From: a virus
Length of the DNA: 64,000 nt
IMG/VR virus record: IMGVR_UViG_3300028859_000013
Coordinates: 32,001 to 96,000 of that record
Strand: one strand, 5' to 3'
A model generated the notes under the pieces. The model was not told the origin of the DNA. It made no database searches and saw only the letters and a list, made by a program, of their open reading frames with translations. The translations under genes were made by a program, and so were the position numbers. The stretch's first letter is position 1. The number at the start of each line of letters is the position of its first letter. Below are positions 31,849-52,518 of this stretch, in pieces.

Positions 31849-32059
31849 TAAAAAATCACTATTTTTTAATAGTGATTTTTTATATATATCGAATCCAGAA
31901 CATAAAAAATATTATAAATTATATTATTAAAAAATATTCTGATTTCATGAAAGAAGTATAAATTGAAAGAAGTATAAAAAATTTTTTAATTTATAAAAAT
32001 ATTGTTAATTTAATTGATTTTTTATATTTATATATATACCAAATTAAAAAATTATAAGC

Positions 32060-41350: not shown

Positions 41351-41744
41351 ATTTAATGAGACATACGAAGAAATAATTCATATTGAAGGTAATGATGTAT
41401 CAAATGATTCAGTACCAATAACAAATAATCGTGATATATTAACTTATATGGTTAATATTCAAACTGATGCATTTAAATCTCATAAATTAGTATTAACTAG
41501 TAATTTAATTGAACCTTTAACAAAAATTTTTGGTACTCAAAATAAAACAATGAGACTTGAGTTTATGACAAAGTTGTGGGTTTTAAAATTTAAAGATTTG
41601 ACATTTAATGTTTATACAGCAAAGAATAGAGGAACATCTTATGAAGTTTGTGACTATTCATATGAAGATATTCGTACAGATAAATTATTAACAAAAAAAA
41701 TTATAGAATTTTTAGATGAATTGTATAAATTAATAAACGAATAA
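41337..41744 (+). CDS. Hypothetical protein
   Basis: Starts MKVDKFNE. Confidence 0.55.
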   Translation: MKVDKFNETYEEIIHIEGNDVSNDSVPITNNRDILTYMVNIQTDAFKSHKLVLTSNLIEPLTKIFGTQNKTMRLEFMTKLWVLKFKDLTFNVYTAKNRGTSYEVCDYSYEDIRTDKLLTKKIIEFLDELYKLINE

Positions 41745-41749
41745 ATAAT

Positions 41750-42091
41750 ATGAAAAAAGCTTATATCGTAAAACTAATTGATGGCGATAATGATACCATT
41801 ATGAAACTTGTTGATCAGGAAACTTGGAATTGGATAAATTTAGATAAATCTGGACAACCAACTCCTACTAAGGTGAAAAAATTTAAATTTTTTGCTACTG
41901 CTACTGGTGGTAGATGGGATGATAAATTGTGTCCAGATTCAATCCGAGAACGGATCAAAAATGATACAGAATTAAATAATTGTATTTTTGATGGTGTTTG
42001 GATAACAGAAGGTACTTGGAACAACGATAGAGCTATATTAGCACCAGCATTAGAAGATAATAACGAAGATTTTAAAAATAGAAAAAAATGA
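41750..42091 (+). CDS. Hypothetical protein
   Basis: ORF in operon. Confidence 0.5.
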   Translation: MKKAYIVKLIDGDNDTIMKLVDQETWNWINLDKSGQPTPTKVKKFKFFATATGGRWDDKLCPDSIRERIKNDTELNNCIFDGVWITEGTWNNDRAILAPALEDNNEDFKNRKK

Positions 42092-42130
42092 CTTTTTTTA
42101 TATAATATATAAGAAAGTAGAAAATAAAAT

Positions 42131-42156
42131 AAACAAAATACAAATTTAAATATATA
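42131..42156 (+). promoter_or_regulatory. AAAC-N16-TATATA promoter of the leader/tRNA operon
   Basis: Exact spacing shared with six other sites in the window. Confidence 0.65.
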
Positions 42157-42163
42157 CAATATC

Positions 42164-42262
42164 ATGAACAACATTAGTAGAAATATCACAGCAGTCACAA
42201 CAACAACTACCCCCGCAGGAGGCAGACCAGTCGTGTATTTGGGTGATAATAATCTAAGTTGA
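42164..42262 (+). CDS. Putative attenuator leader peptide MNNISRNITAVTTTTTPAGGRPVVYLGDNNLS (not in ORF track)
   Basis: GC-rich run of Thr/Ala/Val/Pro/Gly/Arg codons between promoter and terminator, upstream of tRNAs. Confidence 0.75.
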   Translation: MNNISRNITAVTTTTTPAGGRPVVYLGDNNLS

Positions 42263-42290
42263 TATTTTTATAAAATATTTTAATAGTGTT

Positions 42291-42333
42291 AAAAACCCAA
42301 AGATGATTATTCAACTTTGGGTTTTTTCTTTTT
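42291..42333 (+). terminator. Conditional intrinsic terminator (attenuator)
   Basis: AAAAACCCAAAG / CTTTGGGTTTTT stem plus U tract; its 5' arm can instead pair with TTTGGGT at 42238-42244. Confidence 0.8.
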
Positions 42334-42345
42334 AAATAATTAATT

Positions 42346-42423
42346 GGTCCTGTATTGGCAGAATTTCCTAAATTCTATGTGCATAATGGAATGAAAATGA
42401 GAGTTCAAATCTCTTCTGGACTA
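42346..42423 (+). tRNA. Atypical tRNA-Arg(CCT), D-arm absent, long variable region
   Basis: Acceptor GGTCCTG/CTGGACT; AGAAT-TTCCTAA-ATTCT; T-arm GAGAG-TTCAAAT-CTCTT. Confidence 0.65.
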
Positions 42424-42433
42424 CAATAAACAT

Positions 42434-42494
42434 CGGGAGTATGTGGTAGTGTCTCGGGTACCGACACAAGAAAGTTCGACTCTTTCTCTTCCGA
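42434..42494 (+). tRNA. 61-nt D-armless tRNA-Pro-like RNA (anticodon uncertain, CGG or GGG)
   Basis: C1-G72/A73 acceptor; GTGTC-TCGGGTACC-GACAC; T-arm GAAAG-TTCGACT-CTTTC. Confidence 0.5.
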
Positions 42495-42511
42495 CAAAGG
42501 TTGAATTAAAT

Positions 42512-42584
42512 ATGGATGTAGTTCAGTAGGTAGAATGCTTGGTTTGGGACCAAGTGGTCGGGATTTCGAGCATCCCCATCCATA
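42512..42584 (+). tRNA. tRNA-Pro(TGG)
   Basis: ATGGATG/CATCCAT acceptor; CTTGG-TTTGGGA-CCAAG. Confidence 0.85.
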
Positions 42585-42595
42585 CATATAATAAT

Positions 42596-42672
42596 AGTCC
42601 TGTAATGGCATGGTTTTCTAAACCATAAGTGCATAACGGATGTGAATGTGGGTTCGAATCCCATCAGGATTA
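42596..42672 (+). tRNA. Atypical tRNA-Arg(TCT), D-arm absent, long variable region
   Basis: AGTCCTG/CAGGATT; ATGGT-TTTCTAA-ACCAT; GTGGG-TTCGAAT-CCCAT. Confidence 0.7.
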
Positions 42673-42681
42673 CAAAAATAA

Positions 42682-42756
42682 GGGGGCTCATGTTCCAAGG
42701 CTCGGCGATGAATATTTGCAATATTTGTGAGGTGAATCCGATTTTCACAGTCTCCA
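42682..42756 (+). tRNA. tRNA-Ala(TGC)
   Basis: GGGGGCT/AGTCTCC with G3-U70, loop TTTGCAA, A73. Confidence 0.8.
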
Positions 42757-42790
42757 CTATTTTTTGTTGGGTTCAAAATGATTATAATTT

Positions 42791-42865
42791 GCAGATATAG
42801 TATAACGGCTAGTACATAACATTGCCAATGTTAAGATACCTTTTCGAGTAAGGTTATCTGCTCCA
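42791..42865 (+). tRNA. tRNA-Gly(GCC)
   Basis: GCAGATA/TATCTGC; TAACA-TTGCCAA-TGTTA; U73 and encoded CCA. Confidence 0.88.
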
Positions 42866-42961
42866 AGTATTTATGGACATTTTTTATTAATAAGTGAAAA
42901 TAATAGTTCGTTTTTGAGTTTATGCTCATCAATATTTTTATATATACAAATAAAAAGTTGT

Positions 42962-44131
42962 ATGGTAGAATATTGTAAATTTTGTGGTAAAGACATTAAG
43001 GATTTAAAGCCAACACAAAAAGGTCAGCATGTTGCAAATTGTAGCATGAATCCAAATATAAAAATAATTAAGGATAAAAGAGCATTATCAAAAATAGAAA
43101 CACAGAGAGCAAAAAATCCAATATTGAAAATTAAGTTGAGATGCTTAAATTGTAATGAGGAATTTGAAATTGATGTGATTGAAAGTTATTATAAACGTGG
43201 TAGGTATAAAAAATGTTGTTGCGAAAAATGTGCAAAGCAATATTCAACAAAAAATTATGATGACGATATATTAAAAAAAGATTTTTGTAAAGAATGTGGA
43301 GAAGAATTTTTAGTTAAAAATAGAACAAAAATAGGTATATCAACATGTACAAAATGTAGAAAATTAAAAAGAAATAGAGGCAAAAATATAAAAAATATTA
43401 ATAAAAAACTTGGTGATAAAAATATTATAGAAAAAATATTAGTATGTAAATTTTGTGGTGACGAAAAATGTAAAAAACCAGAAGTGTGTTCAAAATTTAG
43501 ACAAAAAAATAATGTTTATGAAAAATATTTAGGTTTTGATAGTAGTAAAAAAGGAAATAATGATGTGTATACTGAGTTTGATAGAATTATAAATGAATTA
43601 AAATTTGATTATTTTGATAAAGAATTGTCTATTGTTGAAATAAGCAAAAAGTATAATATGAATTATAAATCTATGTATTTAATATTTAAAAAGAATAATA
43701 TTGTTATTAGAACATTTTCTGAAGCTGTAATGAATTCTATTAAAAATGGAAAAATAAATTATAATAATATAGTGCAATATCCATATAAATCTGGAATGTA
43801 TATAACATGGAAAGGTGATAACGTACATTATAGAAGCAATTATGAGAAAGAATATTATTCTATTTTGGATGATAAAAAAGTGAATTATGAAGTTGAAAGT
43901 TTAAGAATACAATATTATGATACACAAAAGAAAAAAATAAGAATTGCAATACCAGATATTTATATTAAAGAAATAAATGAAATTATTGAGATAAAAAGTA
44001 AATGGACTTTGAATGAAATAAATATGAAAGATAAAGTAAAATCATATAAAAAACTAGGATATAATGTTAGATTGATTGTTGGTGAAGGAAATAAGAATTT
44101 TTTTAAAAATACAATTGATATAATATATTAA
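42962..44131 (+). CDS. Putative homing endonuclease (Cys-rich, TnsA-like PD-(D/E)xK) inside the tRNA cluster
   Basis: Multiple CxxC; YRSNYE..YE..PDIY..IEIK; likely start ATG 42962. Confidence 0.72.
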   Translation: MVEYCKFCGKDIKDLKPTQKGQHVANCSMNPNIKIIKDKRALSKIETQRAKNPILKIKLRCLNCNEEFEIDVIESYYKRGRYKKCCCEKCAKQYSTKNYDDDILKKDFCKECGEEFLVKNRTKIGISTCTKCRKLKRNRGKNIKNINKKLGDKNIIEKILVCKFCGDEKCKKPEVCSKFRQKNNVYEKYLGFDSSKKGNNDVYTEFDRIINELKFDYFDKELSIVEISKKYNMNYKSMYLIFKKNNIVIRTFSEAVMNSIKNGKINYNNIVQYPYKSGMYITWKGDNVHYRSNYEKEYYSILDDKKVNYEVESLRIQYYDTQKKKIRIAIPDIYIKEINEIIEIKSKWTLNEINMKDKVKSYKKLGYNVRLIVGEGNKNFFKNTIDIIY

Positions 44132-44136
44132 AATAT

Positions 44137-44207
44137 GCAAAATGTAGCTTAACGGTAAAGTATCTGATTTCCAATCAGAAGACGGGGCTCAACACCCACA
44201 TTTTGCT
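44137..44207 (+). tRNA. tRNA-Gly(TCC), divergent T-arm
   Basis: GCAAAATG/CATTTTGC; TCTGA-TTTCCAA-TCAGA. Confidence 0.75.
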
Positions 44208-44214
44208 CATAATC

Positions 44215-44287
44215 AGGACTTTAGCTCAGTTGGTAGAGCGCAACTATTACAAAGTTGATGTCATCGGTTCGATTCCGATAAGTCCTA
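44215..44287 (+). tRNA. tRNA-Val(TAC)
   Basis: Canonical cloverleaf; CAACT-ATTACAA-AGTTG. Confidence 0.88.
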
Positions 44288-44298
44288 CGAAAATAATT

Positions 44299-44369
44299 GC
44301 ACTTATCGTATAATGATATTACTTTGGCGTTGTATACCAAAAATTTCGGTTTGATCCCGAATAGGTGCT
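44299..44369 (+). tRNA. tRNA-Thr(TGT)
   Basis: GCACTTA/TAGGTGC, loop GTTGTAT, divergent T-loop. Confidence 0.7.
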
Positions 44370-44413
44370 CAATAAAATAAACTTTTATTTTATTTTTTAA
44401 TATATAAACATAT

Positions 44414-44486
44414 GCCATTATGATGTAATGGATTAGCATTAAAACCTTCTAAGTTTTTCGTCAGCGTTCGAATCGCTGTAATGGTA
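44414..44486 (+). tRNA. tRNA-Arg(TCT), canonical
   Basis: GCCATTA/TAATGGT; D-loop AATGGATT; AAAAC-CTTCTAA-GTTTT. Confidence 0.88.
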
Positions 44487-44493
44487 CAAAAAT

Positions 44494-44523
44494 AAAAATC
44501 AATCATTATTATGATTGATTTTT
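44494..44523 (+). terminator. Terminator closing the tRNA cluster
   Basis: AAAAATCAATCAT / ATGATTGATTTTT. Confidence 0.75.
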
Positions 44524-44642
44524 ATTTTTAATTAAATAATTTTTACAAATTGAATTTATTTCCGTTATATAAAAGTTCTAATTTTTCAGGTAATTTATAT
44601 ATTTTCACATTATATTATATATTAATTTTTATATATAGATTT

Positions 44643-45347
44643 ATGGAATATATTAAGAATTATAATAATTACAATGATGATATAATTTTAGAAAAATTAA
44701 ATCTTAAATCTCTTTTAGATACATTTAAATCGTTGAATAGTAAAAAAGTAGCTACTTTTATAGTAGGTGGACTTTTGACTATGATGACTGTTACACAAAC
44801 AATAAATTATATAAACAATTTAAATTTAAATGCTAATCAGAAAATAACATTAATACATACTGTTGATAAATTTAAAGATCCATTAAGTTTTGGAGTTAGT
44901 AATTTTATATATGAGCATATCAAAAACCACGAAAAATTAAAATTAAAGGCATATAGATTAAAAGATAATAAAATAACTATAGGATTTGGTCATGCTGAAA
45001 ATATTGGAGAATCTAAATTTAAAATTGGAGATCAAATAACTAAAGAACAAGCAGATCAATTATTTGAACAAGATTTACAATTTGCATATGATGGAGTTAG
45101 ACGTATATTTAAAGAATGGAATAAAAAAGGAATCAATATAAAATTAACACAAAATCAGTTTGATGTTTTAGTGTCATTAGCATTTAATATGGGAATTGAT
45201 AATTTAAGAACTTCAGATTTTATTCAAGCATTAAAACGTAAAGATATTAAGAATGCATCAGAATTGATAAAAATTACTGGATTACGTGATGGATTTGCTG
45301 GATTAGTTGATAGAAGAGAAGAAGAATATAATATATTTATATCATAA
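44643..45347 (+). CDS. GH24 phage lysozyme with N-terminal extension
   Basis: HE..L.AY....TIGFGH, LTQNQFD.LVSLAFNMG and GLVDRREEE; start ATG 44643. Confidence 0.85.
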   Translation: MEYIKNYNNYNDDIILEKLNLKSLLDTFKSLNSKKVATFIVGGLLTMMTVTQTINYINNLNLNANQKITLIHTVDKFKDPLSFGVSNFIYEHIKNHEKLKLKAYRLKDNKITIGFGHAENIGESKFKIGDQITKEQADQLFEQDLQFAYDGVRRIFKEWNKKGINIKLTQNQFDVLVSLAFNMGIDNLRTSDFIQALKRKDIKNASELIKITGLRDGFAGLVDRREEEYNIFIS

Positions 45348-46201: not shown

Positions 46202-46566
46202 TGGTGGAGATGTCGGCATACAATAGCCGAGTCCAATATTGCCTTTCAGCATTTTCTACAAGTTTAGTTCATTTTTTCTAAAATAAACAAAAATACATAA
46301 TTTTTAAATGATAATTATTAAATTCATCAAACATTTTTACACCTTAAAATAGTTTGCTAACAAGGTTTCTGATTTTAGACCGATTAGGCTACTAAAACTT
46401 CATTACCAACAACAGCTTCAGAAACTGCGAAAGTTGTATTAGAAGTTAAAATATGCGTATGTGCTTTGCCATTTAAATTTTACCCATTAATTTATTAATC
46501 GCTGATAGATAATGCGATACTTGCTGATAACCTTATTCTACATTACTGTCAAAATCGTTCATCCCC
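46202..46566 (-). ncRNA. ssrA: tmRNA
   Basis: 5' GGGGATG..TTGACAG; 3' CATCTCC-ACCA with G3-U; internal tag ORF 46470-46384 ending LVA*. Confidence 0.88.
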
Positions 46567-52445: not shown

Positions 52446-52518
52446 GGATCATTAGCCAAGTCGTTACGGCATCTGGCTCATAACCAGAAGATCGTTGGTT
52501 CGATTCCAACATGATCCA
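52446..52518 (+). tRNA. tRNA-CAT (Met or lysidine-Ile2)
   Basis: GGATCAT/ATGATCC; TCTGG-CTCATAA-CCAGA; GTTGG-TTCGATT-CCAAC. Confidence 0.85.

Follow-up and report, generated by a model that had tools for sequence, protein, structure and literature searches.

A short open reading frame (ORF), an intrinsic terminator and a cluster of tRNA genes follow one another on the plus strand of a 64,000-nucleotide (nt) stretch of viral DNA, positions 32,001 to 96,000 of the IMG/VR record IMGVR_UViG_3300028859_000013. We refer to the whole stretch as the window and number positions from its first letter. Its source is a 111-kb viral contig with 23% G+C, to which CheckV assigns a completeness of 16%; the contig is thus a fragment of a very large phage. 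Peat and permafrost metagenomes hold DNA that is near-identical to it. The ORF spans positions 42164 to 42262 (32 codons, ATG to TGA), the terminator lies at 42291 to 42333, and tRNA-like genes follow from about 42346 on, some 12 nt past the U-run. A preliminary description had proposed that these parts form a tRNA-sensing attenuator, with a leader peptide whose codons match the tRNA genes behind it. That proposal is supported by the co-variation of leaders and tRNA sets over 11 units and by an antiterminator that recurs among them.

Codons 9 to 24 of the leader ORF (42188 to 42235), which we call the sensor run, are 16 consecutive codons for Thr, Ala, Val, Pro, Gly and Arg only, and both the ORF and this run stand in the sequence exactly as first quoted. 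The run had been described as unexpected for this phage, and it is the only 16-codon stretch of these residues in the six frames of the 111-kb contig; in contig ORFs of at least 100 amino acids (aa) the longest such run is 8, and the six residues account for 22% of phage codons. When the GC-rich island that holds the run was shuffled with dinucleotides preserved, none of 40,000 shuffles reached a run of 16 in any frame. Together with its uniqueness in the contig, this indicates that the run is not a compositional accident. Over the leader as a whole, 18 of 31 codons belong to the six-amino-acid set, against 6.9 expected (p = 1.6e-5). We also considered the island as a pseudo-tRNA, a small RNA or a minus-strand terminator (42207 to 42225) and rejected all three, because the limitation to six amino acids holds in one frame only and is seen again at other loci.

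The peptide appears to be an orphan. Among 1.8 billion representative proteins it had no homologue but itself, the remaining matches being low-complexity, Thr-rich stretches of long proteins, and a BLAST search of GenBank phages returned only chance-level matches to AT-rich sequence. Neither exact nor degenerate DNA patterns matched any viral contig, whether built from the run, the odd tRNA-like genes described below or a variant junction. An RNA-library contig covers 42163 to 42262, but it carries no transcript ends and may be DNA carry-over.

Ten tRNA or tRNA-like genes serving exactly the six amino acids of the run had been counted downstream. Nine of the ten could be assigned, all of them to those six amino acids, and the tenth, at 42433 to 42495, lacks an assignment. 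The first subcluster (42346 to 42865) comprises an Arg-like gene with anticodon CCT, the unassigned tRNA-like gene, Pro-TGG, an Arg-like gene with TCT, Ala-TGC and Gly-GCC; the second (44138 to 44369) comprises Gly-TCC, Val-TAC and Thr-TGT; and a tRNA-Arg-TCT gene (44414 to 44487) follows with its own promoter-like motif and terminator (44393 to 44529). ARAGORN calls four of these genes at default settings and, at relaxed settings, also Ala-TGC and a second Arg-like gene; Gly-TCC, Thr-TGT and one odd Arg-like gene were recognized by Rfam. The codon-anticodon match claimed for the run holds in part: under standard wobble, 11 of its 16 codons are readable by tRNAs of the window, and GTC (twice), ACT, ACC and CCC are not. 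Four of these five misfits (GTC twice, ACT and ACC) could be read by Val-AAC and Thr-AGT, which are present in relatives and absent from the window. For the leader as a whole, 13 of the 18 codons in the set are cognate to downstream anticodons by the same rules.

The terminator is a hairpin of 12 + 3 base pairs (bp) with a 5' arm at 42291 to 42302 and a 3' arm at 42315 to 42326, followed by a U-run to 42333; its predicted stability of -17.3 kcal/mol agrees with its earlier description as strong. The competing strand named there is also as stated: TTTGGGT at 42238 to 42244 (region 2, codons 25 to 27) is complementary to ACCCAAA at 42295 to 42301. Region 2 lies inside the ORF and is a 7-nt copy of part of the terminator 3' arm. 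The duplex that it can form with the 5' arm has a predicted energy of -9.5 to -10.4 kcal/mol, equalled by 1 to 2% of shuffles (1 to 3% for the 7-nt match), and it ranks among the three strongest upstream complements of the 45 terminator-like hairpins in the contig. The intervening stretch (42245 to 42290), made up of the 3' end of the ORF, its stop codon and a 28-nt spacer, is predicted to fold into the inner stems of an extended antiterminator stem-loop of 7 + 5 + 3 + 8 bp. With a ribosome footprint of 30 nt hidden from thermodynamic folding models, the probability of the antiterminator was about 0.9 for stalls at codons 9 to 18, 0.4 to 0.7 at codons 19 to 21 and about 0 at codons 22 to 32. 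With no ribosome, it was 0.33 in the window and 0.93 in two relatives.

Comparison with relatives indicates which parts of this module are held constant and which are not. Contigs L016 and L017 were found through the downstream lysozyme gene, and L021 to L023 through a pattern built from regions 2, 3 and 4; the three variants compared here, which are close relatives of one another, are those of the window, L017 and L023. The leader ORF stays open in both relatives (33 codons in one and 36 in the other), with in-frame indels of 3 and 9 nt. The sensor run has been rewritten between variants, and codons of the set still fill 16 of its 16 positions in the window and 16 of 17 and 20 of 20 in the relatives. 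It is the most variable part of the module: 10 of its 48 columns vary, compared with 4 of the 121 that make up the remaining ORF, the spacer and the terminator (Fisher p = 6e-4), and both indels, with all 12 gap columns, fall inside it. These changes are not adenine-specific, and a hypervariable region of the diversity-generating retroelement type was rejected on that ground. Region 2 is invariant, and the spacer and terminator core are invariant save for homopolymer lengths (in L017 the A-run and the T-run of the terminator are each one base shorter) and one substitution, U to C at 42251, the only one in the spacer region, a one-sided change that turns a predicted U-G pair of the extended antiterminator into C-G. 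The tRNA clusters of the relatives, with up to 15 genes, serve only Arg, Pro, Ala, Gly, Val and Thr.

The same layout recurs in phages unrelated to that of the window. A simple scan of a handful of tRNA loci, taken from Prevotella phage Lak-B1 and from LR745206.1 (635 kb), required a terminator no farther than 150 nt from a tRNA gene and, at most 100 nt before that terminator, the end of an ATG-initiated ORF; it yielded eight more units. Their leaders are rich in amino acids that match the genes behind them: a Glu/Tyr leader precedes tRNAs for Glu (four) and Tyr (two); an Ile/Gly leader precedes Ile, Gly, Met and Gly; a His/Lys/Phe/Trp leader precedes His, Phe, Trp and Lys; a Ser/Arg leader precedes Arg and Ser; a Pro/Asp/Gln leader precedes Pro and Asp (four); a Gln leader with 7 Gln among 16 codons precedes three tRNA-Gln genes; an Asn/Leu/Thr/Met/Val/Ile/Arg leader precedes 19 tRNAs of exactly those seven amino acids; and, in Lak-B1, a Cys/His/Pro/Gly/Arg/Met leader precedes His, Pro, Arg, Gly, Cys and Met. 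The leader that heads the main Lak-B1 cluster is the eleventh unit of a test set that spans four phage lineages, each unit consisting of a mini-ORF, a terminator and tRNA genes.

Whether leader codons co-vary with downstream anticodons had been set beforehand as the test of the proposal, and they do: none of 200,000 random pairings of the 11 leaders and tRNA sets equaled the true pairing. The tRNA set of a unit was defined mechanically: it comprised the default ARAGORN calls as far as the next leader or over 2.6 kb, to which three genes of the window with Rfam support were added. For long clusters the set depends on where the end of the unit is placed. Each leader is enriched in the amino acids of its own cluster; the leader's own set ranks first in 8 of the 11 units, including that of the window, and second in the other 3. 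Nearly all in-set codons are cognate to downstream anticodons by standard wobble (28 of 29, 19 of 19, 9 of 9 and 8 of 8). An antiterminator complementarity is found at p = 0.001 to 0.057 in nine units, with a Fisher combined p of 1e-10 over all 11, and in every case its region 2 is placed immediately 3' of the cognate codons. A ribosome stalled on those codons would thus leave region 2 free, and one further on would cover it. All units share an N-terminal motif and have both an ATG and an in-frame stop; the N-termini are alike in being rich in Asn and Thr, a likeness that hints at common descent. Such leaders are absent before single tRNA genes, namely, Met at 52446 in the window, Asn and Met in L026, and Met, Cys and Gln in L034 to L036.

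A leader of this kind also stands before protein genes. At 390375 to 390481 of LR745206.1 (L038, 76 to 182), a 16-codon leader rich in Asn and Arg and a terminator precede genes for an asparaginyl-tRNA synthetase (AsnRS) and a protein resembling arginyl-tRNA synthetase (ArgRS); the asparagine-tRNA ligase gene passes the NCBIfam equivalog cutoff.

A second cluster in a 235-kb relative (Leu unit at L025, 1057 to 1205) has five tRNA-Leu genes (anticodons taa, taa, aag, caa and tag). It is preceded by a promoter-like element shared with the window and by a 30-codon ORF with 8 Leu codons (p = 0.0015). The common codon TTA supplies only two of the eight, and the others are TTG, CTA and CTC, so that all four anticodon types (caa, tag, aag and taa) are matched. 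The terminator has a predicted energy of -20 kcal/mol, the first tRNA begins 14 nt after it, and a 7-nt copy of its 3' arm at codons 21 to 23 gives an antiterminator duplex of -12.1 kcal/mol (p = 0.0015 to 0.0025). Folding predicts three alternative helices, 1:2 (a hairpin), 2:3 (the antiterminator) and 3:4 (the terminator). In the masking simulation, the probability of antitermination was 0.96 to 1.0 with a ribosome on codons 8 to 16 and 0.68 on codon 17; it fell to about 0 at codons 18 to 28, stayed at or below 0.29 at codons 29 to 31, and was about 0 with no ribosome, when the 1:2 hairpin forms. Six of the Leu codons, clustered at 10 to 12 and 15 to 17, fall within the antiterminating stall span of 8 to 17.

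In silico, the module has the anatomy of an attenuator, it is conserved, and leader and tRNA content co-vary across many units. We consider it probable, at roughly three chances in four, that the leader and terminator constitute a ribosome-mediated (leader-peptide) transcription attenuator that gates the phage tRNA operon; that the ORF is translated, that readthrough is regulated and what the trigger may be are the parts of this reading that we infer. Transcription would start at promoter-like elements between 42076 and 42157, and the 32-codon ORF would be translated at once. A ribosome moving quickly through the 16 Thr, Ala, Val, Pro, Gly and Arg codons would cover TTTGGGT while the polymerase makes the terminator, and transcription would stop at 42333. 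If charged tRNAs were short, the ribosome would stall in the run and TTTGGGT would stay free to pair with the terminator 5' arm in the extended stem-loop; the terminator would then be blocked, and the polymerase could enter the tRNA genes. The outcome would be feedback control of tRNA supply: the operon would open when the listed codons are decoded slowly and close when they are decoded fast. On this model, output of these tRNAs by the phage probably rises when ribosomes are slow on the codons concerned. Candidate triggers are a mismatch with the codon usage of the host, starvation, cleavage of tRNAs by host defense nucleases (of the PrrC or PARIS type) and plain homeostasis.

Several observations weigh against this reading. 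The antiterminator core is just 7 bp, and region 2 would be hidden by a ribosome stalled on any of the three final codons of the run, both of which had been anticipated as caveats. A ribosome on the stop codon leaves region 2 just outside its footprint, with an antiterminator probability of 0.3 to 0.9, so that termination would hinge on timing or steric hindrance. The five run codons that the tRNAs of the window leave unread count on the same side, as do the out-of-set Asn codon in the run of one relative and a bias of substitutions toward in-set codons that is not significant (about p = 0.15 by our own count over three variants). Both helices are invariant in the three variants and so offer no compensatory changes, the change from U-G to C-G being the sole structural hint. 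Among the 11 units, the antiterminator statistic is weak in two (p = 0.15 and 0.46), and it is also weak in the synthetase unit of LR745206.1 (p = 0.18). Finally, the last four tRNAs of the window sit behind further promoter-like motifs at 42935 and 44393, and downstream promoters of an unfamiliar class may exist. Between the leader terminator and the first tRNA, the window and L023 have no consensus phage promoter motif (a TATAAT occurs in L017 only). In favor of the reading, promoter motifs in the compact L023 cluster lie only upstream of the leader, whose own terminator is the sole one.

A translated mini-ORF matched to its tRNAs might instead act on the processing or stability of the tRNA precursor, or simply load ribosomes, with the hairpin serving as a constitutive, leaky terminator or as a processing signal. 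Co-variation is compatible with this, since it shows a functional link and not a mechanism. The leader terminator moreover looks like the ordinary gene-end terminators of this phage, and an RNA-library contig (42233 to 42381) bridges it, which may mean that readthrough molecules are common; this contig also lacks transcript ends and may derive from DNA carry-over. It is opposed by the antiterminator complementarity in 9 of 11 units, always placed just 3' of the cognate codons, and by the three alternative helices predicted in the Leu unit, and we regard this explanation as unlikely. A second possibility is an RNA switch independent of translation, in which leader triplets bind the anticodons of uncharged tRNAs, in the manner of a T-box with many specifiers, and thereby stabilize the antiterminator. 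It would account equally for the match between triplets and anticodons and for the two competing helices. Against it, every unit keeps its start codon, in-frame stop and N-terminal motif, indels in the run come in multiples of 3, the match is specific to one frame, with other frames of the island giving other residues, and Rfam contains no T-box or other family that matches here; we judge it improbable, and clearly more so than the first. A third explanation, that a small gene of the usual kind or the remnant of a junction, with a terminator of its own, lies 5' of tRNAs by chance and matches them by accident or as a side effect of a GC-rich island, is very unlikely: the upstream gene is indeed truncated at the module edge, so that recombination did occur here, GC-rich islands do stay open in an AT-rich genome, and the peptide is an orphan, but composition fails to explain the run, and 10 further units from four lineages show this layout with other amino acids that again match.

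A ribosome-mediated attenuator at this locus would resemble those of enterobacterial operons. There too, as in thrL (Thr and Ile), ilvL of ilvGMEDA (Ile, Val and Leu), trpL, hisL, leuL and pheL, a short translated ORF with a run of regulatory codons precedes an intrinsic terminator, the antiterminator shares the terminator 5' arm, and a ribosome stalled at the regulatory codons selects it. Sensing of several amino acids by one leader also has precedent in thrL and ilvL, whereas phage leaders list up to seven. The phage leader, known here from sequence alone, differs in gating tRNA genes rather than biosynthetic enzymes, in having region 2 inside the ORF and not past the stop codon, and in an mRNA that looks leaderless; the enterobacterial attenuators have no sequence or Rfam relationship to it. 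Also similar, and likewise unrelated in sequence, is pheM-pheST of Escherichia coli, in which a leader peptide likewise senses the supply of charged tRNA and controls a component of the translation apparatus. Its direct analogue is the Asn/Arg leader before the AsnRS and ArgRS-like genes of LR745206.1; pheM acts in a bacterium on a synthetase for a single amino acid, whereas the tRNA-linked phage leaders would gate the tRNA genes themselves. T-box riboswitches (Rfam RF00230) also sense tRNA status through competing terminator and antiterminator helices. In a T-box, uncharged tRNA is bound directly, with no need of translation; the RNA has a specifier loop and, in the antiterminator bulge, the conserved T-box sequence, and the genes gated are those for aminoacyl-tRNA synthetases or amino acids. 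The phage leader shows none of these features. A cmscan search of 41500 to 45000 against Rfam 15 (E up to 1) found no Stem I, specifier loop or T-box sequence, and only tRNAs and two chance-level matches.

Phage tRNA sets have been viewed as compensation for codon usage or as substitutes for the host tRNAs that anticodon nucleases cleave. Both accounts give a reason for carrying tRNAs and for wanting them on demand, but they treat the tRNA genes as simply expressed, without a sensing leader. Leader-peptide attenuation is textbook knowledge for amino acid biosynthesis and for a synthetase operon; to our knowledge, it has been described neither for tRNA genes nor in phages. Our full-text literature searches turned up no account, for phages or for any other system, of tRNA genes controlled by a leader peptide, in line with the preliminary remark on novelty. 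A Phe-rich leader at an E. coli tRNA-Phe gene, considered as a possible precedent, was not borne out at pheV of strain K-12, which has a plain promoter and no such ORF.

If the attenuator reading is true, large phages do not simply carry their tRNA genes along as cargo: translation of a list of the codons served by those genes would adjust their expression to need. This would give a handle on why large phages carry tRNAs, be it a gap in codon usage, host shutoff or defenses based on anticodon nucleases, and would explain the sorting of phage tRNA genes into amino acid blocks. The leader would also offer a small natural device for sensing how fast the codons of as many as seven amino acids are being decoded simultaneously. 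Its layout occurs in Lak megaphages, and the reading would thus bear on abundant gut phages too. At somewhat better than even odds, we would extend it to a modular control of tRNA supply in huge phages, the Lak megaphages of animal guts included: a family of leaders with a hypervariable middle that names the amino acids served downstream, with one attenuator per amino-acid-sorted tRNA cluster and at least one more at a pair of aminoacyl-tRNA synthetase genes. The similar Asn- and Thr-rich N-termini suggest that these leader peptides are perhaps homologous. Such a system would let a phage gauge decoding speed per codon class and top up the tRNAs that its host lacks or that defenses have destroyed.

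Two promoter-like elements lie upstream of the leader. The first (42076 to 42113, plus strand) consists of an A-rich box, a T-run and TAATATATAA and is conserved across the three variants, among which a single base differs. This element also heads the Leu leader (L025, 1016 to 1056) and a third ORF, cut by the contig end (111222 to 111270 of the full contig, G000, outside the window); it is a candidate mark that may denote one temporal promoter class. The second motif, TTTAAATATATAC at 42145 to 42157 on the plus strand, ends 7 nt before the leader ATG. Motifs of the TTT(A/T)ATATATA type recur throughout the contig, 4 to 27 nt 5' of the starts of long ORFs; many promoter motifs of the contig end 4 to 7 nt before an ATG, a spacing that the leader shares with other genes. 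So short a distance suggests that the leader mRNA is leaderless or nearly so. The promoter first proposed, an AAAC box 16 nt from TATATA, is therefore only partly retained: promoter-like sequence is present at both elements, but AAAC as a -35 box is not upheld.

The module is a cassette. Its left edge lies at 42070 to 42075. The upstream gene (41750 to 42091, 113 aa) lacks the final 30 or so residues present in all six of its homologues, and its similarity to full-length relatives ends at 42073 to 42079, coinciding with the left edge of the tRNA module; homology to the leader module of L017 and L023 begins exactly at 42070, upstream of the promoter elements. A contig from an RNA sequencing run likewise diverges past 42073. 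In the closest syntenic contig (L005), the full upstream gene is followed directly by another protein gene, with neither leader nor tRNAs. This layout and the truncation of the upstream gene point to a cassette with its left edge at about 42070. In the relatives the module follows a different gene, and by sequence comparison it is a conserved unit in another genomic context. Searches seeded with the upstream gene recovered only relatives without the entire module and are hence uninformative about it. One DNA contig joins 42106 to 44518, which would delete the whole module; just 21 nt support the join on one side.

Between the two tRNA subclusters lies a Cys-rich ORF of 390 to 405 aa on the plus strand (42935 to 44131 with its promoter-like motif; the 390-aa form spans 42959 to 44131), which matches no Pfam family. 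It is absent from the compact L023 cluster, and DNA related to it lies inside the tRNA clusters of Lak megaphages, for which reason it is probably a mobile insert of the endonuclease type. An RNA-library contig joins 43373 to 43830, a 456-nt in-frame skip within this ORF.

Some of the tRNA-like genes are of unusual form. The Arg-like genes at 42346 to 42424 (CCT) and 42596 to 42672 (TCT) are paralogous, lack a D arm and carry an insert of about 20 nt after the anticodon arm; one of them scores 34.9 bits in Rfam, and both are kept in L017 and L023. The gene at 42433 to 42495 has acceptor and T arms only about 30 nt apart and a 5-bp stem with a 9-nt loop that reads GGGTACC in the window and GGGATCC in L017. 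Several Gly and Thr tRNA genes of the relatives (L017, 2740 to 2824, 3306 to 3391 and 3851 to 3934) are 84 to 86 nt long, with a 12- to 13-nt insert at the position of the variable arm, which is unusual for these amino acids. Terminators of the contig are mostly symmetric AAAG...CTTT hairpins between A-runs and T-runs and can thus act on both strands. Farther downstream, the window carries a transfer-messenger RNA gene on the minus strand (46202 to 46566; Rfam RF00023, 48.8 bits), and L017 has one at the same relative place.

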